Under the pieces are notes generated by a model that had not been told where the DNA came from, made no database searches, and saw only the letters and a program-made list of their open reading frames with translations. Positions 1,517 through 32,000 of a stretch of DNA of 32,000 bases are shown piece after piece (the first letter of the stretch is position 1; each line of letters begins with the position of its first letter). This stretch comes from Phycisphaera mikurensis NBRC 102666 (GTDB lineage: Bacteria; Planctomycetota; Phycisphaerae; Phycisphaerales; Phycisphaeraceae), in the NCBI RefSeq assembly GCF_000284115.1, contig NC_017080.1, positions 2,190,001-2,222,000 on the forward strand, in the 5' to 3' direction. A program made the position numbers and the translations under genes.

Positions 1517-2661
1517 TGGCGCCTCCCCCCGCACCCGCCGCCGCCCCTTGCCCCGCCACCGAGCGGGGGAAGCGAGCCGATCCGGAGGACCGGTCGCTGC
1601 TGGCCGCGATCGACGGCCGCGCGGCCGCCGCCGACCGCGGCGAGGCCGATCTTTCCCGCGAGGTCGCCGCGCTGCGGCGGGCCGGCTGGCTCGCCGCCCC
1701 GCTGCCCGCCGCGGACGGTGGCCTGGGGTGGGGCACCGAGCCCGCCGGCACCCCGGGCTGCTTCACCGCGTTGCGGCAGCTCGGCCGCGTCTCCCTGCCG
1801 GTCGCCCGGATCTTCGAGGGCCACGTCAACGCGGTCGCTCTGGTCGCGCTCTACGGAGCCGACACGCTCCGCGGCAACGCCTTCGACGCGATCCGCGGCG
1901 GCGGCTGCTTCGGCGTCTGGGGGGCGGACGCCCCGGGCGACGCCGTCACGCTGCGGGGCGAGGGAGAAGCCCTCCGGCTCGCGGGAGCGAAGGACTACGC
2001 GTCCGGCCTCGGCCTGCTGTCTCACGCCGTGGTGTCCGCCCGCGTGGAAGCGGGGACGCAGCTGCTGCTCGTGCCCGTCGGCGACGCCGCCCGCGGCCGC
2101 GGCGACACCTGGCGCCTCGCCGGGATGCGGGCCACACGCTCGGGCCGGTACCGCTTCGACGGCGTCGATCCCGGCGCCGACGCCGAGCTGGGCGGCCCCG
2201 ACGACTGGTTCCGCGAGCCGCACTTCGAGGGCGGCGTGTGGCGCTACTGCGCCGCCCACCTGGGCGCCGCGGAGCGGCTGTTCGCCGAGATGCGGGACGC
2301 CCTGGCGGCCCGCGACCGGGCCGGCGACCCGCACCAGCAGGTCCGCCTCGTGCGGGCCGCGGTCGCCGTCGAGTCCGCCCGGCTCTGGATCGAGCGCGCG
2401 GCCCGCCGCGTGCAGGCCGCCGACGCCCATGCCGACGCCGCCGCGGTGTCGCTGCTCGCCCGGGAGGTCACGCAGGACGCCTGCCGCGACGTCGTCCGGA
2501 TCGTCGAGGAGGCGCTGGGGCTCGCCGCGCACGCCTGGGGCCCGATCGAGCGGACGCGGCGCGACCTCGCCGCCTTCGTCTGCCAGGCCGCGCCCGACGA
2601 CAAGCGTGCCCGCGCCGCCGAGGCCCTCGTCGCCCGCGGGGTGCTGCCGGAGCACCTCTAG
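1516..2661 (+). CDS. Acyl-CoA dehydrogenase-like flavoprotein (381 aa)
   Basis: ATG 1516 overlaps the upstream TGA; an in-frame TTG at 1513 is also possible. The size and segments RIFEGHVNAVALV, GMRATRSG, WRYCAAHLGAAERL and RRDLAAFVCQ resemble the three-domain ACAD fold. High GC3. Confidence 0.65.
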   Translation: MAPPPAPAAAPCPATERGKRADPEDRSLLAAIDGRAAAADRGEADLSREVAALRRAGWLAAPLPAADGGLGWGTEPAGTPGCFTALRQLGRVSLPVARIFEGHVNAVALVALYGADTLRGNAFDAIRGGGCFGVWGADAPGDAVTLRGEGEALRLAGAKDYASGLGLLSHAVVSARVEAGTQLLLVPVGDAARGRGDTWRLAGMRATRSGRYRFDGVDPGADAELGGPDDWFREPHFEGGVWRYCAAHLGAAERLFAEMRDALAARDRAGDPHQQVRLVRAAVAVESARLWIERAARRVQAADAHADAAAVSLLAREVTQDACRDVVRIVEEALGLAAHAWGPIERTRRDLAAFVCQAAPDDKRARAAEALVARGVLPEHL

Positions 2662-3977
2662 TGGTGCCCGACCGGCCCGAGGGCGTGGTGCTGGACCGTG
2701 CGGCGGACGCCCCGTGGGTCGGCCTCGACGAGCTGTGCCCGACTCCGGGCCTCGTCGTCCTCGTCCCGCACCCCGACGACGAAAGCCTCGGCTGCGGGCT
2801 GGCGCTCGCCGCGGCCGCGGCCGCCGGGCGGCGGATCACGCTCGTCCTGCTGACCGACGGCGAGGGCTCGCACCCCGGCTCGGCCACGCACCCGCCGGAG
2901 GTGCTGGCCCGGCTCCGGCGGGCGGAGTTGGACGAGGCCATCGACGCGCTCTGCCCGGACGAAGCTCCGCGGGTGGTCCGCCTCGGCCTGCCCGACGGCC
3001 GCTGCACCGCCGACGACGCCCTCGCCCACCTCGACGCCGCCCGGGCGTTGCTCGACGACGCCGCGCCCGCCACCGTCTGGACCACCTGGAGCGGGGACCC
3101 GCACTGCGACCACGAAGCCGCCGCCGCCCTCGCCGAAGCCCTCGCCGCGGATCCCGCGGTGGCCGTCTGGAGCTACGCCGTGTGGGGCCGCTTCGGCCCC
3201 GCCCGCGCCTCCACCCCCGGCCTCCGCCGCTTCGCGTGCGACGAGATGCGGCCGCGGAAGCGTGCCGCCGCCGGTGCCCACCGCTCGCAGCTCACCCCGC
3301 TGATCGCGGACGCCCCCGACGCCTTCCTCATGCCCGAGGCGTTGACCGAGCACTTCCTCGCGGCGCCCGAGCTGTTCCTCCCCGGCACCGGCCGGCCCGC
3401 CGACCGCCGCGCCACCTTCGACGCGTTGCACGCCGGCGACGCCGACCACTGGTCCGTCACCACCAGCGGGTACGAGCGCCAGAAGCGGGCCGTCACGCTG
3501 GCCGCTCTCCCGCGGCCCGGCTACGCCCGCGCCCTGGAGGCCGGCTGCGGCATCGGGGTCCTCACCGCCGAGCTGGCCCCCCGCTGCGGCGAACTGCTCG
3601 CCCTGGACGTCTCGCCGAACGCCGTGGAACGGGCGAGGGTTCGGCTTGCGCGTCACGGGCACGTCCGCGTCGGGGTGGCCGAGCTGCCCGCAGGATGGCC
3701 CGCCGGGACGTTCGACCTGATCGTCCTCTCCGAGCTGCTCTACTTCTTGAGCGCCGACGAGGTCGCGGACCTCTCCGTCCGCGCCGCCGCCGCCCTGGCA
3801 CCCGACGGCGTCTGCTTGCTGGTGAACTGGACCGGCCCCAACGACCTCCCCCTCGATGGCGACGCCGCGGCCGGAGCCTTCCGCGACGCGGCCGGCACGC
3901 GGTGGCACGTCCTGCGGGCCGACCGCCACGAGGGCTTCCGCCTCGACCTGCTGCGGGCGGCAACCCGCGGCGGCTGA
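2661..3977 (+). CDS. Fusion protein: N-terminal PIG-L/LmbE-family N-acetylglucosaminyl deacetylase plus C-terminal NodS-like SAM-dependent methyltransferase (438 aa)
   Basis: GTG 2661 overlaps the upstream TAG (TAGTG). The N-terminal half has the LmbE signatures VLVPHPDDESLG and GDPHCDHEAA. The C-terminal half (from about nt 3400) has SAM motif I LEAGCGIGVLT. It also has a NodS-like context: YERQKRAVTL..., LALDVSPNAVERAR, FDLIVLSELLYFL. One uninterrupted frame joins the two halves. Confidence 0.8.
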   Translation: MVPDRPEGVVLDRAADAPWVGLDELCPTPGLVVLVPHPDDESLGCGLALAAAAAAGRRITLVLLTDGEGSHPGSATHPPEVLARLRRAELDEAIDALCPDEAPRVVRLGLPDGRCTADDALAHLDAARALLDDAAPATVWTTWSGDPHCDHEAAAALAEALAADPAVAVWSYAVWGRFGPARASTPGLRRFACDEMRPRKRAAAGAHRSQLTPLIADAPDAFLMPEALTEHFLAAPELFLPGTGRPADRRATFDALHAGDADHWSVTTSGYERQKRAVTLAALPRPGYARALEAGCGIGVLTAELAPRCGELLALDVSPNAVERARVRLARHGHVRVGVAELPAGWPAGTFDLIVLSELLYFLSADEVADLSVRAAAALAPDGVCLLVNWTGPNDLPLDGDAAAGAFRDAAGTRWHVLRADRHEGFRLDLLRAATRGG

Positions 3978-4034
3978 TGCGGACGCCCGCGCGGCCGCCC
4001 GGGGGACTGCCGCCCGGGCGAACGGAGGCGTGCG

Positions 4035-4080
4035 CCGCGGACCGCGGCGTTTCGGCGCGTCCGCGGCCGGCGGTCCGCGG
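4035..4080. repeat. REP-like 46-bp palindromic element, locus A (CCGCGGACCGCGG-N20-CGGCGGTCCGCGG; right arm 12/13)
   Basis: Read directly. The left arm 4035-4047 is embedded in a 17-bp perfect palindrome, CGCCGCGGACCGCGGCG (4033-4049). The spacer is cgtttcggcgcgtccgcggc. The element ends 35 bp upstream of the korA ATG. Confidence 0.85.
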
Positions 4081-4114
4081 CGCCGGGGCCGCTGGATCCC
4101 CTAGCTTGGCCGCG

Positions 4115-6046
4115 ATGCCCGCCGCCGCAGCCACCGCTTCCGCTCCCGAAACCGCCGCCCGCCGCTCGATCGTCGTCCGCTTCGCGGGCGATTCCGGAGA
4201 CGGCATGCAGCTGGCGGGCACGCAGTTCACCGACACCTCGGCGATCTTCGGCAACGACGTCGCGACCTTCCCGGACTTTCCCGCGGAGATCCGGGCGCCC
4301 GCCGGCACCGTGGCCGGCGTGTCGGGTTTCCAGGTGCACTTCTCCAGCGACGACATCTTCCACCCCGGGGACCACGTCGACGCGCTGATCGCGATGAACC
4401 CCGCGGGCCTCAAGGCGCACCTCAAGGACGTGACCCCCGGCGGTCTCGTGATCGTGAACGCCGACGAGTTCACGAAGACGAACCTCAAGAAGGCCGGGTA
4501 CCCGACGCCGGAGGGCTCGAAGGAGCCGTACAACCCCCTCGAGGACGAGGAGCTGTTCCGCAACCTCCGCCTGCACAAGGTGCCGGTGACCAAGCTGAAC
4601 CAGGAGGTGCTCCGAGCGGGCAACGCCGAGCACGGCTGGGGCCTGGACCCGCGCTCGATCGCCCGCTGCCGCAACATGTGGGTGCTGGGCCTCGTGTACT
4701 GGCTCTTCGACCGGCCCCTGGCCACGACCGAGGAGCACCTGAACCAGACCTTCGCGGTCCGCAAGAAGCTGCCCGCCGTCGCCGCGGCGAACATCCAGAG
4801 CCTCCGCGCCGGGTGGAACTACGGCGAGACGGCGGAGATCGTCGCCGAGCGGGCCCGCGTGGAGCCGGCGGACATCGCCCCGGGGGTCTACCGGAAGGTG
4901 ACCGGCAACGAGGCGTTGTCGATGGGGCTCATCGCCGGCGGCAACCTCGCGGCGAAGGACATCGTGTACGCGACCTACCCGATCACACCGGCGTCGGACA
5001 TCCTGCACAACCTCGCGCCGATGAAGCACTTCGGCGTGAAAACCGTGCAAGCCGAGGACGAGATCGCCGCGGTGTGCGCCGCGATTGGTGCCAGCTTCGC
5101 CGGCCAGATCGGCATCACCGGCACCTCCGGGCCGGGCCTGGCGCTCAAGGCCGAGGCGATGGGGCTGGCGGTGGTGACCGAGCTGCCGCTGATCGTGATC
5201 AACGTGCAGCGCGGCGGGCCGTCCACCGGCCTGCCGACCAAGACCGAGCAGAGCGATCTCCTGCAGGCGGTGCACGGCCGCAACGGCGATGCCCCGGTGG
5301 TGGTGCTGGCGCCCGACTCGCCGGGCGACTGCTTCCGGGTGGGCATCGAGGCGATCCGCGTCGCGCTCACGCGGATGGTGCCGGTGGTGATCCTCACCGA
5401 CGGCTACCTCGCCAACGGCAGCGAGCCCTGGGAGGTGCCCTCGGCCGCGGACTTCCCGGCGATCGAGGTGGAGCACGCCACCGCCGCCCAGATCGCGGAT
5501 CCCGACGGCGAGGGCTTTCTCCCGTACAGCCGCGACGAACACGGCGCCCGGCCCTGGGCGATCCCCGGGGAGCCCGGGGTGGAGCACCGCATCGGCGGGC
5601 TCGAGAAGCAGGATCGCACGGGCAACGTGAGCTACGACCCCGAGAACCACCAGCGGATGACGGACCTGCGTGCCGCGAAGGTGGCCGCCGTCGCGGACCT
5701 CGTGCCCGACATCGAGGCCCTGCAAGGTCCCCCGAGCGGGCCGCTGCTCGTGCTGGGCTGGGGCGGCACGCGCGGGTCCATCACGGCGGCGGTGCAGGCG
5801 GCGCACGAGCGGGGCCAGGCACAGGTCGCCCAGGCGCACCTGCGCCACCTCAACCCGTTCCCGAGGAATCTCGGCGCGTTCCTCGCCGGCTACGAGCGGG
5901 TGCTGATCCCCGAGCTGAACATGGGCCAGCTGCTGCTGCTGATCCGCGGGAGCTTCTGCGTGCCGGCCGTCGGCTTGAACAAGGTGAAGGGCAAGCCGTT
6001 CCTGGTGGAAGAGCTGCTGGCGGCGATCGACGAGCAGCTCCGCTGA
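4115..6046 (+). CDS. korA: 2-oxoglutarate/2-oxoacid:ferredoxin oxidoreductase, alpha subunit (fused gamma-alpha type, 643 aa)
   Basis: ATG 4115. The N-terminus RFAGDSGDGMQLAG...FPDFPAEIRAP is gamma-domain-like. It is followed by TGNEALSMG..YPITPASDIL...AEDEIAA...GTSGPGLALK...GGPSTGLPTKTEQSDL and the C-terminal LIPELNMGQL. This is the typical KorA architecture. Confidence 0.9.
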   Translation: MPAAAATASAPETAARRSIVVRFAGDSGDGMQLAGTQFTDTSAIFGNDVATFPDFPAEIRAPAGTVAGVSGFQVHFSSDDIFHPGDHVDALIAMNPAGLKAHLKDVTPGGLVIVNADEFTKTNLKKAGYPTPEGSKEPYNPLEDEELFRNLRLHKVPVTKLNQEVLRAGNAEHGWGLDPRSIARCRNMWVLGLVYWLFDRPLATTEEHLNQTFAVRKKLPAVAAANIQSLRAGWNYGETAEIVAERARVEPADIAPGVYRKVTGNEALSMGLIAGGNLAAKDIVYATYPITPASDILHNLAPMKHFGVKTVQAEDEIAAVCAAIGASFAGQIGITGTSGPGLALKAEAMGLAVVTELPLIVINVQRGGPSTGLPTKTEQSDLLQAVHGRNGDAPVVVLAPDSPGDCFRVGIEAIRVALTRMVPVVILTDGYLANGSEPWEVPSAADFPAIEVEHATAAQIADPDGEGFLPYSRDEHGARPWAIPGEPGVEHRIGGLEKQDRTGNVSYDPENHQRMTDLRAAKVAAVADLVPDIEALQGPPSGPLLVLGWGGTRGSITAAVQAAHERGQAQVAQAHLRHLNPFPRNLGAFLAGYERVLIPELNMGQLLLLIRGSFCVPAVGLNKVKGKPFLVEELLAAIDEQLR

Positions 6047-8423: not shown

Positions 8424-9824
8424 TCACCCCGGAGCGGGAGCGAAGACGAGGCGGCACGCGAAGCGGAGCTTCGAGGCGGCTTCCTCGTCGCCGGGCGGGC
8501 CGTCGATGCGGAAAGGCTCGGCGATCGGCAGCGTCCAGGCGCCGTCCATCCGCAGGCGGGGCCGCCCGTCCTCCGCGACGAAGGCCTCGAGCTGGACGGG
8601 GACCGCGAGCGGGAGCTGGATCCCCTTCATCGTGAAGGTGCCGTGCAGCGTGAGCGGGGTGGGCCTACCGAAGGCGATCCCGCTCCCGTCGGGGGCGTCG
8701 ACGGACTCGATGACGAACGAGGATTCCGGGTGCTCGTCGACCTCCAGCACGCCGCCGTGGATCCAAGCGTCGAGGTCGTCCTCGCCCATGGTCACCGAGG
8801 CCGGGTCCGCCGCGATCCGACCGGTCATCCCGGCGAGGTCGTCGACGGAGTCCAGGGCCAGCGCGCCGGAGACGCCCGCGGCTTCGCCGGCGTAGCCGTC
8901 CAGCGGCGCCGGGAAGGCGAAGGTGACCGCGGGCCCGGCCGCGGGATCCACCACGACCTCCCAGGCGGTGGCCAGCTCCACGCCCGCGGCGTCGGCGGCG
9001 GGCGTGCCCGCGGGACGCTCGGGCAGGCCGAGCCCCATGGCGTCCCAAGCCGCCACCGGGAAGCCGGCCGGCACCGCGTCGAAGCCGTCGCCCCGGGGGG
9101 ACGCCGCCAGCTGCTCCCGCAGCTCCTCGGTCAGCGCCCGGGCAGCCGACGCGAAGGCCGCGCCCAGGCCGTCGCTCCGGGCCGGGCTCTCGAAGTTCGT
9201 CCAGACCGGCTCGTGGCAGTGGAACTGCGAGTACAGCTCGGCGGACACGGCGTAGCCCCGCTCCCCCGCGTAGGGGTAGAAGTTCGCGTACCAGAGCCGG
9301 TCGGCGCGGCCCAGCTCGACGCGATCGGCGAGCGCGAAGCCCTCCACGGCCGCGACGAAGGCCCGGGCATCCGGCGGGGCCGCCACGCGGCCGGCCCCCG
9401 GGCCCGACAGCGGCGTGATCTTCAGCGGGACGGCGATCGTCGCCCGCCCCGCCGCCTGCACCGGGAGGGCCTCCCGCACCAGCGGCGCGTCGCCCTGGGG
9501 CATCGCCCGGGCCGTACGCAGGAAGTTGGTGATGCGGTCGGGCGTCGCGTAGCGGCCCTGGTACACCGACCGCCCGCGCCAGTCCTGGAAGACGAGCAGC
9601 GGGGTGATCTTCACCTCGGCGGGCGCCTCGCCCGTCTCCGCCAGGTCGATCAGCTCGACCGGGACCCCGAGATCCCCGGCGAGCGAGCGGATCTTGGGCA
9701 GGTGATCCTCGCGGAAGGCCGCCTGCAGCGGCGAAGCACCGGAACGCACGAACACGAGCAGACGCTCCGCCGAGGCGGGCAGGCACAGCAGCGCGGCGAG
9801 GAGCGCGGTCAGCAGTCGGGGCAT
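8424..9824 (-). CDS. Secreted multidomain protein with a C-terminal YceI-like domain (466 aa)
   Basis: The signal peptide is MPRLLTALLAALLCLPASA/ERL. The C-terminal approximately 170 aa (VTFAFPAPLDGYAGEAAGVSGALAL...DDLDAWIHGGVLEVDEHPESSFVIESV...LTLHGTFTMKGIQLPLAVPV) follows the YceI beta-barrel pattern. I do not recognise the N-terminal two thirds. Confidence 0.65.
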   Translation of the reverse strand: MPRLLTALLAALLCLPASAERLLVFVRSGASPLQAAFREDHLPKIRSLAGDLGVPVELIDLAETGEAPAEVKITPLLVFQDWRGRSVYQGRYATPDRITNFLRTARAMPQGDAPLVREALPVQAAGRATIAVPLKITPLSGPGAGRVAAPPDARAFVAAVEGFALADRVELGRADRLWYANFYPYAGERGYAVSAELYSQFHCHEPVWTNFESPARSDGLGAAFASAARALTEELREQLAASPRGDGFDAVPAGFPVAAWDAMGLGLPERPAGTPAADAAGVELATAWEVVVDPAAGPAVTFAFPAPLDGYAGEAAGVSGALALDSVDDLAGMTGRIAADPASVTMGEDDLDAWIHGGVLEVDEHPESSFVIESVDAPDGSGIAFGRPTPLTLHGTFTMKGIQLPLAVPVQLEAFVAEDGRPRLRMDGAWTLPIAEPFRIDGPPGDEEAASKLRFACRLVFAPAPG

Positions 9825-9845
9825 GGCGGCTTCCGGGGGCGGCTT

Positions 9846-9891
9846 CCGCGGACCTTCGATCGTTTCCGGCGTTTTCGGCCGCGGTCCGCGG
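9846..9891. repeat. REP-like 46-bp palindromic element, locus B (left arm degenerate: CCGCGGACCTTCG-N20-CCGCGGTCCGCGG)
   Basis: Read directly. The right arm at 9879-9891 is perfect; the left arm matches 10/13. It is intergenic, 22 bp upstream of the ATG (9824) of the minus-strand gene. Confidence 0.75.
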
Positions 9892-9909
9892 CGTCCGACG
9901 GCGCCGGGG

Positions 9910-10533
9910 TCACTGCGCCTCGTAGCCGACGATCCGGACCATGACGTAGATCTTCTTCGCCACCTCCGAGCCGTCCATCTCGGGCTTGATGCCGAAGTCG
10001 GTGCGGTCGATCGTGAAGTCCGACCGCAGCACGAGCAGGTCGCCGCTGCGGTTCTTCGGGCCCCGCTCGGCGGCGCCGTCCTTCTGGATCGTGGCCTCGA
10101 TCGTGTAGGTCTTGTCCACCTCGATGCTCCCGTAGGTCATCGTGCCCTTCACCTCCAGCACGGTGGCGCCGGCGTCGGTGGTGGACACCTGCTCGACCGA
10201 CTCGAAGCTCGCGTCGAAGGTCATGCCCTCGCTGGCGGCGAGCCAGCCGTCGGAGAGCATGTGCTGGGTCATCTGCTCGTTGGTGACCTGCAGCGTGTCG
10301 GCGGCCACGGAGATGGAGCCGGAGAAGCCGCCGGGCGCGTCGGGGTCGAAGCTCACCGTGCCGGTGACGCCCTTGCCGAAGCCCACGAACGGCTCCAGCG
10401 GGGAGTCGTTGATGAAGGCGATGCCGTTGACGCCCTTGGGGTCTTCGAAGTCGTAGCGCACCTCTTCGGCGTCCGCGGCGGACGCGGGCAGGAGGAGCGA
10501 AGCGGCGAGCACGGCGAACAGCGGGCGGATCAT
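9910..10533 (-). CDS. YceI family periplasmic/secreted polyisoprenoid-binding-like protein (207 aa)
   Basis: The signal peptide is MIRPLFAVLAASLLLPASA/AD. The YceI pattern is YDFEDPKGVNGIAF...GTVSFDP...LQVTNEQMTQHMLSDGWL...LEVKGTMTYGSIEVDKTY...DFTIDRTDFGI. Confidence 0.85.
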   Translation of the reverse strand: MIRPLFAVLAASLLLPASAADAEEVRYDFEDPKGVNGIAFINDSPLEPFVGFGKGVTGTVSFDPDAPGGFSGSISVAADTLQVTNEQMTQHMLSDGWLAASEGMTFDASFESVEQVSTTDAGATVLEVKGTMTYGSIEVDKTYTIEATIQKDGAAERGPKNRSGDLLVLRSDFTIDRTDFGIKPEMDGSEVAKKIYVMVRIVGYEAQ

Positions 10534-10619
10534 CGAGAGCCTTGCAAAAGGGAAGAACGTGACGCACCGAGCCTAGCGCATCCTGCGCCACCGGCGGACC
10601 GCCGCTGCGGGATCGACGC

Positions 10620-27437: not shown

Positions 27438-28043
27438 TCATCGGGTGTTGCCGCCGGCGGCGCCACCGCCGCAGCGTCGCTGGGTCTCGAGCACGAGCCG
27501 GTGCACCTCCAGCGGCTCGTGGAGGAACAGCCAGGCGGCCTCCACCGTGCCCGTGCCCGCGGTGGAGAACGTGACGGTTCCGAGGCCGAACAGCCGCTCC
27601 CGCAGCGAGAAGAAGAGCCCGGTGTGCTGCAGCCGCGAGAGCCGCGCCTCGAACACGCTCACCCGGATCACCCCCTGGACACGGAGCACGCGGCGGTCGG
27701 TGAGCACGTACACGCGGCCGGCCCAGTCGAGCGTCTGCCACCCCAGCCGCAGAAGCAGCAGCGTCGCGGCGAGCGTGAGGATCTCTCCGCTCATCCGCGC
27801 TTGGTTGAGAAAGGCGTCGGCGCGGTGGCCGGCCGCGGCGAGGGCCAGCACCAGCACGAAGAAGCCCAGCGGCGCAAGCAGGATGTACCAGCGGCTGGGC
27901 TTCCGCAGCAGCAGCACCGCTTCGCCGTCCTGCAGCAGCTGGGGCGGGAGGATCGACGCGAGCCGGTCCACCGCCGCCGGAGGCGCAGCGGCGGCGGGCG
28001 CGGCGGTGCCGGCGGCGGCGGCCGGGTCGCACCCGGTGCTCAA
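27438..28043 (-). CDS. Membrane protein with a bacterial PH (bPH_2/YdbT-like) domain (201 aa from TTG 28043; GTG 27971 is an alternative)
   Basis: Two hydrophobic helices (WYILLAPLGFFVLVLALAAAG, ILTLAATLLLLRLGW) are followed by YVLTDRRVLRVQGVIRVSVFEARLSRLQHT..SLRERLFGLGTVTFS, typical of DUF304/bPH_2 proteins. TTG 28043 overlaps the hpt stop (TTGA). Confidence 0.65.
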   Translation of the reverse strand: MSTGCDPAAAAGTAAPAAAAPPAAVDRLASILPPQLLQDGEAVLLLRKPSRWYILLAPLGFFVLVLALAAAGHRADAFLNQARMSGEILTLAATLLLLRLGWQTLDWAGRVYVLTDRRVLRVQGVIRVSVFEARLSRLQHTGLFFSLRERLFGLGTVTFSTAGTGTVEAAWLFLHEPLEVHRLVLETQRRCGGGAAGGNTR

Positions 28044-28660
28044 CGCGGCTCACCCGCGGGCGGCACGCGGACCGCCGCCGCATCGGCCCGGGCCGGGGCA
28101 CCGTCCGCCAAGAGCACCTCGATGTCCGGCAGATTGCGGTGGTGGTCGTCGTGGTCGAGGCCGTAGCCGACCACGAAGGCGTCGGGGATGTCGAAGGCGA
28201 CGTGGTCGACCTCCAGCGTGCCCGCCTCCGCGTCCCGGCATTGGTTGGGCTTGCGGAGCAGCACGCAGGTGGAGACCTCCGCGGCGCCCCGCTCCAAGAG
28301 CTCCGCCTTGATCGCCGCCATCGTGCGGCCGGAGTCGAGGATGTCATCGATGACCAGCACGTGCCGGCCGGTCAGGTCCAGGGGCACGTTGGTCTTCGCC
28401 GGGTCGAGCGTGACACCCTGGCTCGTGGTGGCGGTGCCGGGGTAGCTGCGGACCTGGATGAGGTGGATCCGCATCTTCTGCGGGAGGTGGCGGATGAGGT
28501 CCGCGGCGAAGATGAAGGCACCGGTCATGACCGGCACCAGCGTGATCTCGGGGTCGCCGGGCTTGCCCGCCCAGGCGGCGGCGACCTCGCCGGCGAGCGC
28601 CTCGACCCGCGCGGCGATCCGCTCGCGCGGGATCAGGACGCGTTGTTCGGGGGAGGGCAT
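28040..28660 (-). CDS. hpt: Hypoxanthine(-guanine) phosphoribosyltransferase (206 aa)
   Basis: ATG 28660. LIPRERIAARVEALA, LVPVMTGAFIFAADLIRHL, the PRPP loop HVLVIDDILDSGRTM, and DAFVVGYGLD. Confidence 0.9.
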   Translation of the reverse strand: MPSPEQRVLIPRERIAARVEALAGEVAAAWAGKPGDPEITLVPVMTGAFIFAADLIRHLPQKMRIHLIQVRSYPGTATTSQGVTLDPAKTNVPLDLTGRHVLVIDDILDSGRTMAAIKAELLERGAAEVSTCVLLRKPNQCRDAEAGTLEVDHVAFDIPDAFVVGYGLDHDDHHRNLPDIEVLLADGAPARADAAAVRVPPAGEPR

Positions 28661-28751: not shown

Positions 28752-28823
28752 CTCTCCGCCTCTCCGCCTCTCCGCCTCTTCGTCTCTTCGTCTCTCCGTC
28801 TCTCCGTCTCTCCGTCTCTTCAT
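28752..28823. repeat. Tandem octamer repeat, 9 copies of CTCTYCRY: 3x CTCTCCGC, 2x CTCTTCGT, 3x CTCTCCGT, 1x CTCTTCAT. It lies inside a pyrimidine-rich plus-strand tract of about 100 nt
   Basis: Read directly with 8-bp phasing from 28752 to 28823. It sits in the 182-bp divergent intergenic region between hpt (ATG 28660, minus) and the FlgI-like gene (ATG 28843, plus). The array ends 20 bp before that ATG. Confidence 0.95.
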
Positions 28824-28842: not shown

Positions 28843-30918
28843 ATGCCCCTCCGCCTCTCCCTGCCCGCCGCCACCGCGGCCGCGGCGCTGTGCTCGCTCG
28901 TCCTTCTGCCCGGCTGCCAGCGGGAGCGGCTGGAGGCGACGGCGGCCGCCCCGCCGGCACCGGTCTTCCAGGGCCCGCGTGAGCTGCGCGGCACGATCGG
29001 CTCGTACGCCCGGCTGCAGGGCGGGGCGCCGCTGCTGGTCTCGGGCTACGGGCTGGTCGTCAACCTCGACCGCACCGGCTCGGGCGTGGTGCCGGAGTTC
29101 CTGCGCGACTGGCTGAGCAACGAGATGAGGAAGCGTGGCGTGGGCAGCCGGCAGCTCGCGGCCCGCAACCCCGAGCTCGCGGCGGTGACGCCGCAGCGGC
29201 TGATGTACTCCGAGCAAACCGCGGTGGTGCGGATCTCGGGCTTCATCCCCGCCGGCGCCACCCCGGGGACGCCTTTCGACCTGCTGCTGGAGGCGCTCCC
29301 GGAGGACACCGACACCACCAGCCTCGCCGGCGGCCAGCTCTGGCGCACGGGGCTGGGGGTGGACGGGGCGAACCGCCGGCTCCGCTTCTCGACGCCGCTC
29401 GCCGCCGGCGCCGGCCCCGTGTACCTCGGGCCCGAGGCCGCGGCGACGCCCGACGCGAGCGGTGGCCGCCGCGCGGTGATCGTCGGCGGCGGCCGGGCGA
29501 CCGAGCCGCGGCGGCTGGAGCTGATCCTCAACCAGAGCTCGTGGGTGAACGCCCGCCGCATCGCCGACACGATCAACGAGCGCTACCGCGCCGGCGCCTC
29601 CAGCCGCCCGGGCTCGGTGCGGCCCACGGCCAACGCGGTGTCCGACTCGGTGATCCAGATCTCGGTGCCGGAGCGCTTCGTCGGCAACGCGGAGGCGCTG
29701 CTCGCGCTCATCGAGAACACCTACCCGTATCCGGTGGATCGGGCGGACAAGGTCGACGAGATGATGGCGCTGCTCGCGCAGCCGGCGCCCCCGGAGGACG
29801 TGCTGCGCCGGGCGCCGCTGGTGTGCCGCGCCCTCGGCCCCAACGCCATCCCCGCGCTGCGGGCGCACTACGCCGCCGGCCCGCTCCGCGTTCGGCAGGC
29901 GGCGCTGGACAGCGGTGCCTGGCTGGGCGACCACGAGGCGGTCGGCCCGCTGGCGTCGCTCGCGGCCTCGGGCGACCCCGCCACGCGGCGGGCCGCGGCC
30001 GCGTCGCTCGCCCTCCTGCCCGACGATCTCCGCGCGACCGAGGCGCTGGCCGGGCTGCTCGACGACGCCGACGACGGCGTCCGCATCGCCGCTTACGAGG
30101 CGGTCGCCGGCGGCAGCGCGCTGGTCGAGCGGACCGCCGTGGAGAATCTCGACGGCGTGAAGTTCCTCATCGACCGGGTACCGGCGGAGCGGCCGCTGGT
30201 GCTGGCGATCCCGCGGGGCGTCCCGCGGCTGGTGATCTTCGGGCCGCAGACCGGCTTCACGCCTCCGGTGTTCGACGCGGACCCCGCCGGGGCCCTGCTC
30301 ATCCGGACGCCGACCTCTTTCGCGCAGGCGATGTCGGGGCTGCGCGACGGCGACACCGCCTTCCTGCCCGCCGTGGGCCGGACGCAGGTGCGCGACGGCG
30401 CGGAGGGCCCCGTGGCCGAGGCGCTCGACGCGGAAGGCGCCATCCTCAGCGTCGAGCTGGGCGGGGCCGCCGAGGCGTTCGCGTCTGCGCTCCCGCTGGG
30501 CGGGAGCGCGGGCGGCGTGCCGGCGACGCTGCGCTGCCGGGTGGAGGATGCGGGGCGCGGCACCGTGTCGCTGCTGGGCCTCGAGCCGGGGCTGGGCAGC
30601 ATGCCGCTGTCGATCTTCTACCGCGGCCCCGGGGGCGAGGGCGCGACCACCGAGCGGGTCGCGCCGACGGTCGCGGCGTTGGCCTTCTTCCTCGCCCACC
30701 GGCCCACGATGGGCACGCCGCAGGAGGGGCTGGACCTCTCCTACGGCCGCACCGTCTCGGTGCTCGAGCGCCTCGCGCGCGGCGGTTCGATGCCCAGCCC
30801 CATGAGGCTCCTCGACAACCCGCTCGCGGCCCGGGTGGCCGAGGCCGAGGCGGCCGAAGAGGCGAGCCGGGCCGGTCGCCAGCTCAGCGGCGCGACGCTG
30901 CCCGCTGATGGTTCCTAG
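28843..30918 (+). CDS. Probable lipoprotein with an N-terminal flagellar P-ring (FlgI)-like domain, central HEAT/ARM-like repeats and an unrecognised C-terminal region (691 aa)
   Basis: The signal peptide with a lipobox-like LVLLPGC is at residues 19-25. The FlgI-like block (about nt 28978-29725) reads GYGLVVNLDRTGSG, QTAVVRISGFIPAGATPGTPFDLLLEAL...SLAGGQLWRTGL, LELILNQSSWVNARRIADTINERY and VIQISVP...ALLALIEN, colinear with E. coli FlgI. HEAT-like repeats (about nt 29839-30105) read AIPALRAHY...VRQAALDSGAWLGDHEAVGPLASLAASGDPATRRAAAASLALL...DGVRIAAYEAV. Confidence 0.7.
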   Translation: MPLRLSLPAATAAAALCSLVLLPGCQRERLEATAAAPPAPVFQGPRELRGTIGSYARLQGGAPLLVSGYGLVVNLDRTGSGVVPEFLRDWLSNEMRKRGVGSRQLAARNPELAAVTPQRLMYSEQTAVVRISGFIPAGATPGTPFDLLLEALPEDTDTTSLAGGQLWRTGLGVDGANRRLRFSTPLAAGAGPVYLGPEAAATPDASGGRRAVIVGGGRATEPRRLELILNQSSWVNARRIADTINERYRAGASSRPGSVRPTANAVSDSVIQISVPERFVGNAEALLALIENTYPYPVDRADKVDEMMALLAQPAPPEDVLRRAPLVCRALGPNAIPALRAHYAAGPLRVRQAALDSGAWLGDHEAVGPLASLAASGDPATRRAAAASLALLPDDLRATEALAGLLDDADDGVRIAAYEAVAGGSALVERTAVENLDGVKFLIDRVPAERPLVLAIPRGVPRLVIFGPQTGFTPPVFDADPAGALLIRTPTSFAQAMSGLRDGDTAFLPAVGRTQVRDGAEGPVAEALDAEGAILSVELGGAAEAFASALPLGGSAGGVPATLRCRVEDAGRGTVSLLGLEPGLGSMPLSIFYRGPGGEGATTERVAPTVAALAFFLAHRPTMGTPQEGLDLSYGRTVSVLERLARGGSMPSPMRLLDNPLAARVAEAEAAEEASRAGRQLSGATLPADGS

Positions 30919-31055: not shown

Positions 31056-32000
31056 TCAGCGCATGCGGTACGCGATCCGGAGGCGTCCGACCGATTCGAT
31101 CAGGCGGCGGAGGTCGGCCGCGGCGACGCGGCCCGAGGAGAAGTCCGCCGACGCCTCCGCGAAGGGGTCGCCGGTGCGAGCCCCCAGCAGGCCGAGCAGG
31201 CCGCCGCCGCCGCGCTCGAGGATCGTGACACGGGCCTCCTCGGCGTCGGCGACGCCCAGCGTGGTCGACACCGACGCGATCGCGTCCTCCAGGTACCCCA
31301 CCTCGTCGACGAGCCCGTTCTCCACCGCCGCCGCCGAGGTGAAGACCGAGCCGTCCGCCACGCCGCCGACGCTGTCCTCGTCGAGCGCCGGCCGCCCCGC
31401 CACGACCACCGAGGCGAAGCGCTCGTACGCGTCGTCGATGAGCGTCGCGACGACCGCCCGGTCGGCCTCGGTCCAGTCGCGGTACAGGTTGTTGGCGTTG
31501 TCCTTGCGGGGGCTGCCGTCGGCGACCAGCGTGACCCAGTCGACGCCGAGCTTGTCCATGGCGCCCGCGAGCGTCGGCACCTGGGCGATCACGCCGATGG
31601 AGCCGGTGAAGCCGGTGGGCTCGATGAAGATGCGGTCGGTGCCGGCCGCCACGTAGTAGCCGCCGGAGGCCGCGACGCCGCCGAAGCTGGCGACGACGGG
31701 CAGGTCGGGGTGGCGCTCCTGGAAGCGCTCGAGCTCGTGCCAGATCCGGTCCGACGCGGTCACGCCGCCGCCGCCGGACTCCACCCGCAGGATCAGCGCG
31801 TCGGGGAGGCGGCCGGGCTTCTCGAGGCTGCGCAGCGCCTCGCCGCAGAACCAGGCCATCTCCTCGTCGATGACGCCGACCACCGGCAGCACGGCGACGT
31901 GCTTGGGGTCGATGCCGACCCCCTCCCGCAGCACCGTCTCCGCCGGGCCGGCGGTCATCGCGTAGACCAGCGCTCCCAGGTACAGGTTCAGGAGCAGCGA
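31056..32000 (-). CDS. sppA: Signal peptide peptidase SppA (S49 family, 36K type); the N-terminus lies beyond the window
   Basis: The frame is open to the window edge: ...LLLNLYLGALVYAMTAGP is a TM-like helix preceding the ATG at 31958. Motifs include ILRVESGGGGVTASD, GGVAASGGYYVAAGTDRIFIEPTGFTGSIGV (catalytic Ser context), PRKD and GSVFTSAAAVENGLVDEVG. Confidence 0.85.
   Translation of the reverse strand, partial: SLLLNLYLGALVYAMTAGPAETVLREGVGIDPKHVAVLPVVGVIDEEMAWFCGEALRSLEKPGRLPDALILRVESGGGGVTASDRIWHELERFQERHPDLPVVASFGGVAASGGYYVAAGTDRIFIEPTGFTGSIGVIAQVPTLAGAMDKLGVDWVTLVADGSPRKDNANNLYRDWTEADRAVVATLIDDAYERFASVVVAGRPALDEDSVGGVADGSVFTSAAAVENGLVDEVGYLEDAIASVSTTLGVADAEEARVTILERGGGGLLGLLGARTGDPFAEASADFSSGRVAAADLRRLIESVGRLRIAYRMR

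Follow-up and report, generated by a model that had tools for sequence, protein, structure and literature searches.

A FlgI homolog with a lipobox and a HEAT-repeat solenoid in Phycisphaerales, a possible P-ring subunit with a built-in scaffold

What is a relative of the flagellar P-ring protein FlgI doing behind a lipoprotein signal, joined to HEAT repeats, and away from any flagellar gene cluster? The question is raised by a complete open reading frame (ORF) of Phycisphaera mikurensis, found in a window of 32,000 nucleotides (the whole stretch of DNA that was analyzed). The ORF spans 28843..30918 on the + strand, starts with ATG, and encodes 691 residues plus stop: a FlgI homolog with a lipoprotein signature and, most likely, a HEAT insertion. 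An hpt-like Pribosyltran gene (28040-28660, - strand) lies upstream in divergent orientation, and a Peptidase_S49/SppA gene, starting at 31056 on the - strand, lies downstream and convergent. These are the hpt and sppA neighbours named in the initial annotation, which had also seen no flg, fli, or mot genes in the window; no flagellar Pfam family was detected across its whole length. The location outside a flagellar cluster holds for the window and for all 88 related loci.

Lipid anchor and FlgI core

The protein begins with a signal peptide (28843..28917, + strand; predicted helix at residues 9-20) that ends in a lipobox at Cys25. Measured against the criterion of a signal peptide plus [LVI][ASTVI][GAS]C, the sequence of the window protein (..LVLLPGC, i.e., L-P-G-C) has an atypical Pro at -2. 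Across the family, 85 of 86 ORFs have the Cys, the sole exception being 5'-truncated; only G, A, or S occurs at position -1 (G57/A23/S5), and position -3 is L/V/I/A in 70/86. The Phycisphaerales FlgI homolog carries the bacterial-lipoprotein signature, and its lipidation is predicted. A poorly conserved, Pro/Ala-rich tether (residues 26-43; 28918..28971, + strand) with a mean pairwise identity of 0.20 connects the Cys to the FlgI fold; residues 22-35 have pLDDT <50. At the opposite end, residues 661-691 (30823..30915, + strand; identity 0.24) form a helix (661-678) and a disordered tail (679-691, pLDDT <50).

Residues 44-298 (28972..29736, + strand) are homologous to the outer-rim (OR) and upper-inner-ring (IRU) domains of FlgI by three methods. 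First, Pfam PF02119 matches residues 56-294 to profile positions 6-224 of 343 (E=6.2e-14, 52.1 bits versus a cutoff of 25.3). Second, hhalign pairs family positions 56-297 with Salmonella FlgI 26-248 (probability 96.7%, E=3e-10). Third, Foldseek ranks 1-4 are all FlgI chains (E 5e-12 to 1e-10), with 8z5n_4 (E=5e-12) and 7cbl_a (E=5.5e-11) as best matches. The motif GYGLVVNLDRTG at residues 68-79 aligns with Salmonella GYGLVVGLDGTG, and RIADTIN (residues 240-246) with Salmonella QITDAIN. The initial annotation had described a lipobox-type signal and about 250 residues colinear with FlgI, including the hallmark motif and RIADTIN, and had proposed an FlgI HMM search over residues ~45-295; the family-wide Cys and the significant PF02119 match, backed by hhalign and Foldseek, bear it out.

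Placing this match on the ring requires the OR, IRU, and lower-inner-ring (IRL) limits of the Salmonella LP-ring structure (PMC8298488). PF02119 scores 68-99 bits in 10 divergent members, and the match always ends at profile position 226-230 of 343; in every member this end coincides with the OR/IRL domain boundary. OR plus IRU is the most conserved module of the protein (0.47 identity), and IRU, which in Salmonella is the rod- and FlgH-facing domain, is its best conserved part. The full-length NCBIfam FlgI model NF003676 gives 41.9 bits, below its cutoff of 300. Two rod-facing columns, K95 and K63 in Salmonella mature numbering, have also changed: the former is T/S in 75/85 members and basic in none, and the latter is K in 9/85 (~10%). 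Canonical FlgIs are basic at these two positions in 70% and 57% of cases, so a basic residue is not an absolute family feature there and its loss cannot decide function.

The HEAT solenoid and the domain beyond it

Residues 299-425 (29737..30117, + strand) form a HEAT-repeat solenoid of 8 helices, or ~4 repeats, at the OR-to-IRL junction. Pfam HEAT_2 (PF13646) matches residues 341-421 (E=1e-7, 32.6 bits versus a cutoff of 27.7), alphaRep/HEAT proteins match at E=7e-13 by sequence and ~2e-4 by fold, and the helices at residues 300-421 are modeled with pLDDT >90. The HEAT/ARM-like repeats noticed in the initial annotation are thereby placed in a known family, above its cutoff and with an α-solenoid fold. 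The architecture consists of retained OR and IRU domains, a four-repeat HEAT solenoid exactly at the OR-to-IRL boundary, and an invariant lipobox before the fold.

The domain after the solenoid (residues 426-660; 30118..30822, + strand) is probably a strongly diverged IRL. In a deep-profile hhalign comparison, it is colinear with the entire IRL (FlgI 232-365), with a score of 23.8 (P=0.013) that 0/800 shuffled profiles reached and that exceeds the reversed profile and every alternative register; the order of secondary-structure elements matches IRL as well. A thin profile gave only E=0.05 against FlgI by hhalign, and neither a PDB profile search with this thin profile nor Foldseek on the isolated domain (pLDDT-88 model) returned FlgI. 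The idea of an insertion in a complete FlgI was provisionally dropped after the thin-profile and Foldseek results and was revived by the deep profiles and shuffles. The domain is found solely in the FlgI-HEAT lipoprotein architecture. A likeness of the C-terminal helix pair to urease gamma (E=0.17) is regarded as chance. Within the domain, the P. mikurensis-like subclade carries a folded insert of ~100 residues (~489-588; 30307..30606, + strand) at the site of the flexible FlgI loop 264-295; it occupies columns 700-840 of alignment A1, occurs only in P0001-P0010 and P0030, and has a pLDDT of about 90.

Because the post-HEAT region is colinear with the whole IRL at a score that none of the shuffles reached, the HEAT solenoid has most likely been inserted into an otherwise complete FlgI; the protein is then not a partial FlgI joined to an unrelated C-terminus. 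If the post-HEAT domain is an IRL, as is probable, all three ring-building domains are present. This changes two points of the initial annotation: the ~270 residues it could not assign are now tentatively a diverged IRL, and its picture of a FlgI-like piece fused to other domains gives way to a match that stops at the OR/IRL boundary, with an IRL-like colinear region following the HEAT repeats.

Distribution and readings of function

The FlgI-HEAT lipoprotein occurs in at least 170 species genomes, nearly all labelled Phycisphaerae, and in 671 representative clusters. Every homolog found has the same architecture, and the combination of lipobox, FlgI, and HEAT lies far beyond chance expectation. 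The architecture is ancient and widespread, and it is ancestral and encoded by a single gene across Phycisphaerales. Two apparent natural splits did not stand up: L089 has an assembly frameshift, since its adjacent smc and RNR genes are likewise broken into fragments, and in L090 the break lies inside the domain. The literature searched neither describes the FlgI-HEAT-lipobox architecture nor takes stock of flgH and flgI genes in Phycisphaerae.

We give about an even chance to the reading that this gene encodes the P-ring subunit FlgI of Phycisphaerales, a subunit that is itself tethered to the outer membrane and includes a periplasmic scaffold. Following Sec export, Cys25 would be lipidated and inserted into the inner leaflet of the outer membrane, and the subunits would polymerize, in the manner of FlgI, by way of the conserved IRU and the IRL-like inner face to encircle the distal rod. 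The N-terminus of FlgI is part of the outer rim, and the lipidated tether of ~18 residues would therefore fasten the ring to the outer membrane at its rim. On the outer and lower face, the HEAT solenoids, together with the 'flexible loop' insert in P. mikurensis, would stick out and form a built-in periplasmic collar, which could serve to support the ring or to place stator units. OR and the known flexible loop are the attachment sites of the additions, and none sits on the inner face, so that, with all of them on the outer rim and lower face, the rod-facing side of the ring would remain free.

Besides the FlgI homology, the colinear IRL signal, and the IRU conservation, genomic observations speak for the P-ring subunit. 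Carrier lineages have flagellin genes, in about 9 loci within 10 kb, and Phycisphaerae isolates are monotrichous; the cultured Algisphaera agarilytica has the FlgI-HEAT gene and two flagellins nearby. The P. mikurensis genome is absent among the 120 flagellin matches listed. No canonical or second flgI was found in the fetched sequence, about 1.35 Mb of flanks, and the canonical FlgIs nearest to the family profile belong to clusters of proteobacterial type. An ortholog is automatically named FlgI in RefSeq, and likewise in UniRef.

Other observations count against the P-ring subunit. The gene never adjoins flgA, flgH, or rod genes: within ±10 kb of the 88 loci, FlhA, FlgF/G, FlgA, FlgH, FlgK/L, and MotA/B are absent, and flagellins, 7-10 kb away in about 9 of them, are the sole flagellar genes near. 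In planctomycetes, flagellar genes are generally scattered, so a location outside a cluster is uninformative. The sigma-28 promoter motif CCGATA shows no enrichment upstream (4/76 loci versus 3.7 expected), a result that does not inform on function. The gene immediately downstream, in the same orientation, is smc in 62/79 distinct loci, a linkage far more conserved than that of other neighbours, and the FlgI-HEAT family evolves faster than smc. The low NCBIfam score, the mostly non-basic K63/K95 columns, and an IRL homology that is weak and missed by Foldseek weigh on the same side.

Most of these points would suit a repurposed paralog, which we hold to be possible though on the whole unlikely: a lipid-anchored, FlgI-derived ring module with HEAT scaffolds that builds or docks an envelope structure other than the flagellum, with a role in housekeeping or linked to the cell cycle; the flagellum would then have a separate canonical FlgI elsewhere or no P-ring. 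The 88 loci lacking flagellar neighbours other than the distant flagellins, the basic residues lost at K95, the faster evolution, and the strong divergence (52-99 Pfam bits over two-thirds of the profile, as well as the NCBIfam shortfall) fit such a paralog. The smc linkage helps it a little; however, conserved synteny alone does not imply shared function, and the P. mikurensis clade has lost the linkage and kept the protein, so it is not obligatory. The paralog is further opposed by the lack of a canonical flgI in any fetched sequence, by carriers that are flagellated where this can be checked from flagellin genes, and by the additions sparing the inner face of the ring. A specific variant, in which a lipid-anchored, FlgI-derived ring with HEAT spokes works as an envelope machine in the periplasm and is inherited together with smc, for example as a ring associated with division or segregation in Phycisphaerae, seems to us improbable. 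To our knowledge, Phycisphaerae undergo binary fission without FtsZ. The initial annotation had itself favoured a repurposed module: its view of an architecture that is real, conserved, and outside flagellar clusters has held up, its fusion to foreign domains has not, and its ring 'unrelated to the flagellum' finds no positive evidence, given flagellins in carrier lineages and no second flgI in the fetched sequence.

Equally improbable is a periplasmic lipoprotein that does not polymerize at all, in which the FlgI-like fold would bind peptidoglycan or a partner and the HEAT repeats would act as an adaptor. A lipid anchor with HEAT repeats is typical of adaptor lipoproteins, and AF2, given the monomer alone, returns a compact model of good confidence (pTM 0.79). 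IRL, which in Salmonella forms intersubunit β-sheets (PMC8298488), is barely recognizable here; against this stand its colinear signal and the retention of OR and IRU, the domains of P-ring lateral contacts and FlgH pockets, with IRU the best conserved of all. No monomeric protein with a FlgI fold is known to us. Finally, the ORF might be spurious or decaying, or its Pfam match due to chance, a doubt that a genome of 75% GC invites through the many long spurious ORFs in the window; this reading has a negligible probability and is ruled out by conservation, with full-length orthologs in at least 170 species, a GC3 of 0.95 with coding-type frame bias, the confident AF2 model, and the agreement of HMM, profile-profile, and fold evidence.

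If the protein is the P-ring subunit of Phycisphaerales, FlgI itself would carry both a lipid anchor and an in-chain α-solenoid scaffold, jobs that elsewhere fall to FlgH and to the separate proteins MotX/Y, FlgT, FlgP, and PflA/B. We know of no earlier case of these two features inside FlgI, and they would mark a distinct route of flagellar-motor elaboration in a PVC lineage. An extra periplasmic ring with P-ring symmetry would then be predicted in P. mikurensis or Algisphaera agarilytica; the literature searched contains no imaging of flagellar motors from the Phycisphaerales lineage of PVC bacteria. If the protein is non-flagellar, another envelope structure would have taken over a P-ring module whose gene is tightly linked to smc, which would be a much bigger surprise. 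Under either reading, the automatic database name 'FlgI' masks an unusual architecture.

Comparison with known systems

Canonical FlgI (PF02119; Salmonella 7CLR, 7CBL, 7BGL) shares with the protein described here the homologous OR and IRU domains, the GYGLVV..L..TG motif, probably the IRL as C-terminal domain, and export to the periplasm, here predicted. The initial contrast with a FlgI that has no lipid anchor and no HEAT repeats stands: a lipobox replaces the signal-peptidase-I site, a ~125-residue HEAT solenoid sits at the OR/IRL junction where canonical FlgI has none, and the IRL is extremely diverged, with the 100-residue insert added in the P. mikurensis clade. The length is about 600-720 residues versus about 365, the basic residues at K63/K95 are mostly missing, the NCBIfam score lies below the cutoff, and the gene is not clustered with flgA or flgH, whereas the canonical gene usually is (e.g., L088). 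The solenoid itself agrees in repeat sequence and fold (residues 300-421) with HEAT repeats of the PBS-lyase/alphaRep type (PF13646), but it sits within a predicted periplasmic ring protein, in a context that has no relation to the lyases.

By analogy, the role proposed for the HEAT solenoid resembles that of the Vibrio T and H rings (MotX/MotY/FlgT, PDB 8Z5N), accessory collars of the P-ring made by separate proteins. The FlgP disk and PflA/PflB cage of Campylobacter and Helicobacter, where FlgP is a lipoprotein and PflA/PflB are α-solenoids (TPR), likewise offer an analogy for the α-solenoid and lipoprotein scaffold that may lie around or under the P-ring here. Unlike in all of these proteins, with which there is no sequence homology, the scaffold would lie within the FlgI chain. 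FlgH, the lipoprotein of the L-ring, is a β-barrel with no sequence or fold similarity to the protein; the likeness lies in a lipidated N-terminal Cys followed by an extended chain that would link the ring to the outer membrane, an arrangement predicted here for the P-ring homolog.

Domain organization of the FlgI-HEAT protein

The FlgI-HEAT gene lies at positions 28843..30918 of the + strand of the window, starts with ATG and encodes 691 residues, exactly where the initial annotation placed it. At 0.95, its GC content at third positions is what genuine genes show in this window, whose overall GC is ~75%. The Pfam FlgI profile (PF02119) matches significantly (E=6.2e-14, 52.1 bits versus a gathering score of 25.3), with residues 56-294 aligned to positions 6-224 of 343, bearing out the likeness proposed for residues about 45-295. 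The HEAT repeats that the initial annotation claimed are also recovered, since HEAT_2 (PF13646) scores 32.6 bits at residues 341-421, above its gathering score of 27.7. The suspected lipobox is kept across the family (this protein and its homologs): 85 of 86 ORFs have the Cys, which is missing only from one that is truncated at its 5' end, and position -1 is G, A or S.

A PDB sequence search with the P. mikurensis protein matched only designed alphaRep/HEAT proteins. An AlphaFold2 model built with 28 homologs is confident (pLDDT 84.9, pTM 0.79), and Foldseek ranks four cryo-EM FlgI chains first in the PDB (E 5e-12 to 1e-10): 8z5n_4 from the Vibrio LPHT ring, and 7cbl_a, 7nvg and 7bgl from Salmonella. 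HEAT/alphaRep proteins come next. Profile-profile comparison aligns family residues 56-297 with residues 26-248 of the Salmonella FlgI precursor at 96.7% probability. In the LP-ring structure (PMC8298488), mature FlgI consists of an outer-rim domain (OR, residues 1-11 and 160-230), an upper inner-ring domain (IRU, 12-159) and a lower inner-ring domain (IRL, 231-346). The family match corresponds to mature residues 7-229 and thus covers exactly OR plus IRU. It ends at profile position 226-230 in all 10 divergent members examined, and the HEAT segment begins precisely at the expected IRL start.

By Pfam profile and by OR/IRU fold, the protein belongs to FlgI. By three other measures it does not: it scores 41.9 bits against the cutoff of 300 of the curated full-length NCBIfam FlgI model, its predicted lipidation departs from the soluble, non-lipidated character of FlgI, and its gene lies outside a flagellar cluster.

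The C-terminal domain

The initial annotation was right about the FlgI-like and HEAT architecture; the ~270 residues it left unplaced can now be placed tentatively. A 14-sequence profile of the post-HEAT region (aa 426-660, the C-terminal domain) found no FlgI match in the PDB, and Foldseek returned no significant neighbour for a confident model of the domain on its own (pLDDT 88.3). The hhalign comparison with a FlgI profile of two sequences reached only E=0.05, yet at the colinear position. With 84 family sequences compared to 103 canonical FlgIs, the top match paired domain positions 14-140 with FlgI 232-365 (score 23.8, P=0.013), taking in the entire IRL domain to the final residue of FlgI. 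The reversed-profile control scored 12.8, and all 800 profiles with shuffled columns or blocks stayed below 23.8 (means 14.0 and 14.6, maximum 23.2). The order of secondary structure is that of IRL: three strands, loop, strand, two helices and a final strand. Over its first ~15 columns the alignment runs into FlgI residues that the N-terminal match already covers, which we take to be over-extension. Together, the deep-profile score, the shuffle controls and the matching secondary-structure order argue from sequence that the domain is probably a very diverged IRL.

The FlgI-HEAT protein would then probably contain FlgI in full, plus four additions: an N-terminal lipobox and tether, HEAT repeats inserted where OR meets IRL, an insert in the flexible loop that is specific to one clade, and a C-terminal helix with a disordered tail. 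The third is a folded insert of ~100 aa (aa ~489-588) that is restricted to the P. mikurensis-like subclade and sits at the position of Salmonella FlgI flexible loop 264-295, the source of extra density under the P-ring (PMC8298488). IRU is the most conserved module (mean pairwise identity 0.47), and the tether (0.20) and tail (0.24) are the least conserved. Separately, a conserved helix-loop-helix, LAxxLAHxPT...GLDLSYxxVV (window 30670-30790, aa ~610-650), weakly matches urease gamma subunit profiles (E=0.17-0.57); we judged this similarity to be chance, though it recurs across several urease entries.

Distribution and gene neighbourhood

The architecture is identical in every homolog found. 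Relatives occur in at least 170 species-representative genomes, and the best 80 of these are nearly all labelled Phycisphaerae, Phycisphaerales or Phycisphaeraceae, complete chromosomes included. An exhaustive search with an HMM of the C-terminal domain recovered 671 representative clusters at E<=1e-3, 140 of them at <=1e-30. In the best 150 of the 671, the domain occupies roughly residues 420-600 of proteins 600-720 aa long, or else the protein is evidently a fragment; because of this shared placement, the domain is, as judged on those 150 clusters, exclusive to the family. Two loci carry the family gene as two ORFs (L089, 10001-16163; L090, 4725-6560). We rejected natural domain separation in favour of probable assembly frameshifts, since smc and ribonucleotide reductase are also fragmented in L089, and the break in L090 falls inside the C-terminal domain. 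By score, searches with the FlgI-like region clearly separate the family (109-338 bits) from canonical FlgIs (<=93 bits), the nearest of which belong to flagellar clusters of the ordinary kind (flgF-flgG-flgA-flgH-flgI in L088; fliX-flgI-flgJ in L087). P-ring genes were noted in the Rhodopirellula genome (Cavalier-Smith 2006), so canonical FlgI does occur elsewhere in the phylum.

Upstream of the FlgI-HEAT gene, and divergent from it, are an hpt-like Pribosyltran gene and a bPH_2 membrane-protein gene (window 27438-28660, - strand, overlapping by 4 nt); a convergent Peptidase_S49 (SppA) gene lies downstream. The neighbours hpt and sppA are those first described, and Pfam domains across the window likewise include no flagellar gene. 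Other genes in the window encode POR, zinc-ribbon, photolyase-like and YceI proteins, aconitase, MiaA, oxidoreductases, sugar-modifying enzymes, GGDEF proteins and a peptidase M3. In the divergent intergenic region, ending 24 nt before the ATG, 8.5 tandem copies of the octamer CTCTCCGT (window 28752-28819, 95% matches) could form a slippage-prone or polypyrimidine element affecting expression; the repeat is absent from L002, the closest relative examined. Elsewhere, in a 1442-aa ORF (1718-6046, +), pyruvate:ferredoxin oxidoreductase domains (POR, POR_N) are confined to residues ~827-1301 and the first ~800 residues match nothing in Pfam; the start of this ORF may be over-extended in high-GC sequence, or the N-terminal region unassigned. 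Overlapping ORFs at 8424-10136 and 9910-10572 (-) both contain YceI-like domains, the former with ~400 unassigned N-terminal residues, and gene boundaries in 8424-10572 are uncertain.

The most conserved neighbour is, unexpectedly, smc, which follows immediately 3' of the family gene and in the same orientation in 65 of 82 informative loci (62 of 79 without three duplicates; L004 5896-6076 and 64 others, e.g., L020, L049, L069 and L091), with a gap of 69-430 nt in 61 of them. By comparison, only about 23-27 of the 86 related loci have the hpt/bPH_2 pair upstream (hpt in 23, bPH_2 in 27). Linkage to smc extends to members of ~30% identity; it is gone in the P. mikurensis clade (window, L001, L002), where the protein is kept.

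P-ring subunit or another assembly

Whether the FlgI-HEAT protein is an elaborated P-ring subunit is, in our estimate, an even call. All ring-building domains are apparently kept, IRU best of all, and the additions are all on the outer rim or flexible loop, which, from the alignment and the domains of PMC8298488, would leave the ring's inner face free. Phycisphaerae isolates are monotrichous, no second flgI occurs in ~1.35 Mb around family loci, and carrier lineages have flagellin genes. In about nine distinct loci they are 7-10 kb away from the family gene (e.g., L003 613-2103, L010 218-3880, L020 200-4045 and L091 10001-13367), mostly in one conserved block of flagellin, hisD, bPH_2, hpt and the family gene; in the cultured species Algisphaera agarilytica, the block includes two flagellins. 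Phycisphaerales flagellins show unusual full-length conservation (the 120 best database matches have >=66% identity) and are often tandem duplicates.

Against a P-ring role stand the strong divergence from canonical FlgI, the linkage to smc, and upstream regions not enriched in sigma-28-like promoters. Basic residues are missing at the K95 position and few at K63; however, canonical FlgIs themselves are only 70% and 57% basic at these two positions. No FlhA, FlhF/G, FliA, FlgF/G, FlgA, FlgH, FlgK/L or MotA/B gene lies within +-10 kb of family loci, and at no locus does a flagellar structural gene other than flagellin adjoin the family gene. A repurposed, non-flagellar ring or scaffold is a more tentative reading of the same protein, and a non-polymerising adaptor lipoprotein is improbable.

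The literature searched contained no whole-genome inventory of canonical flgI and flgH and no description of a lipobox-HEAT FlgI. The Algisphaera ortholog WP_184678005.1 is auto-named 'flagellar basal body P-ring protein FlgI' in RefSeq and UniRef. The FlgI-HEAT protein shares the OR/IRU fold of canonical FlgI, but adds a lipobox and HEAT repeats and lacks a flagellar gene cluster. In function it would most resemble a FlgI that also takes on the tasks done elsewhere by the lipid anchor of FlgH and by accessory ring proteins.
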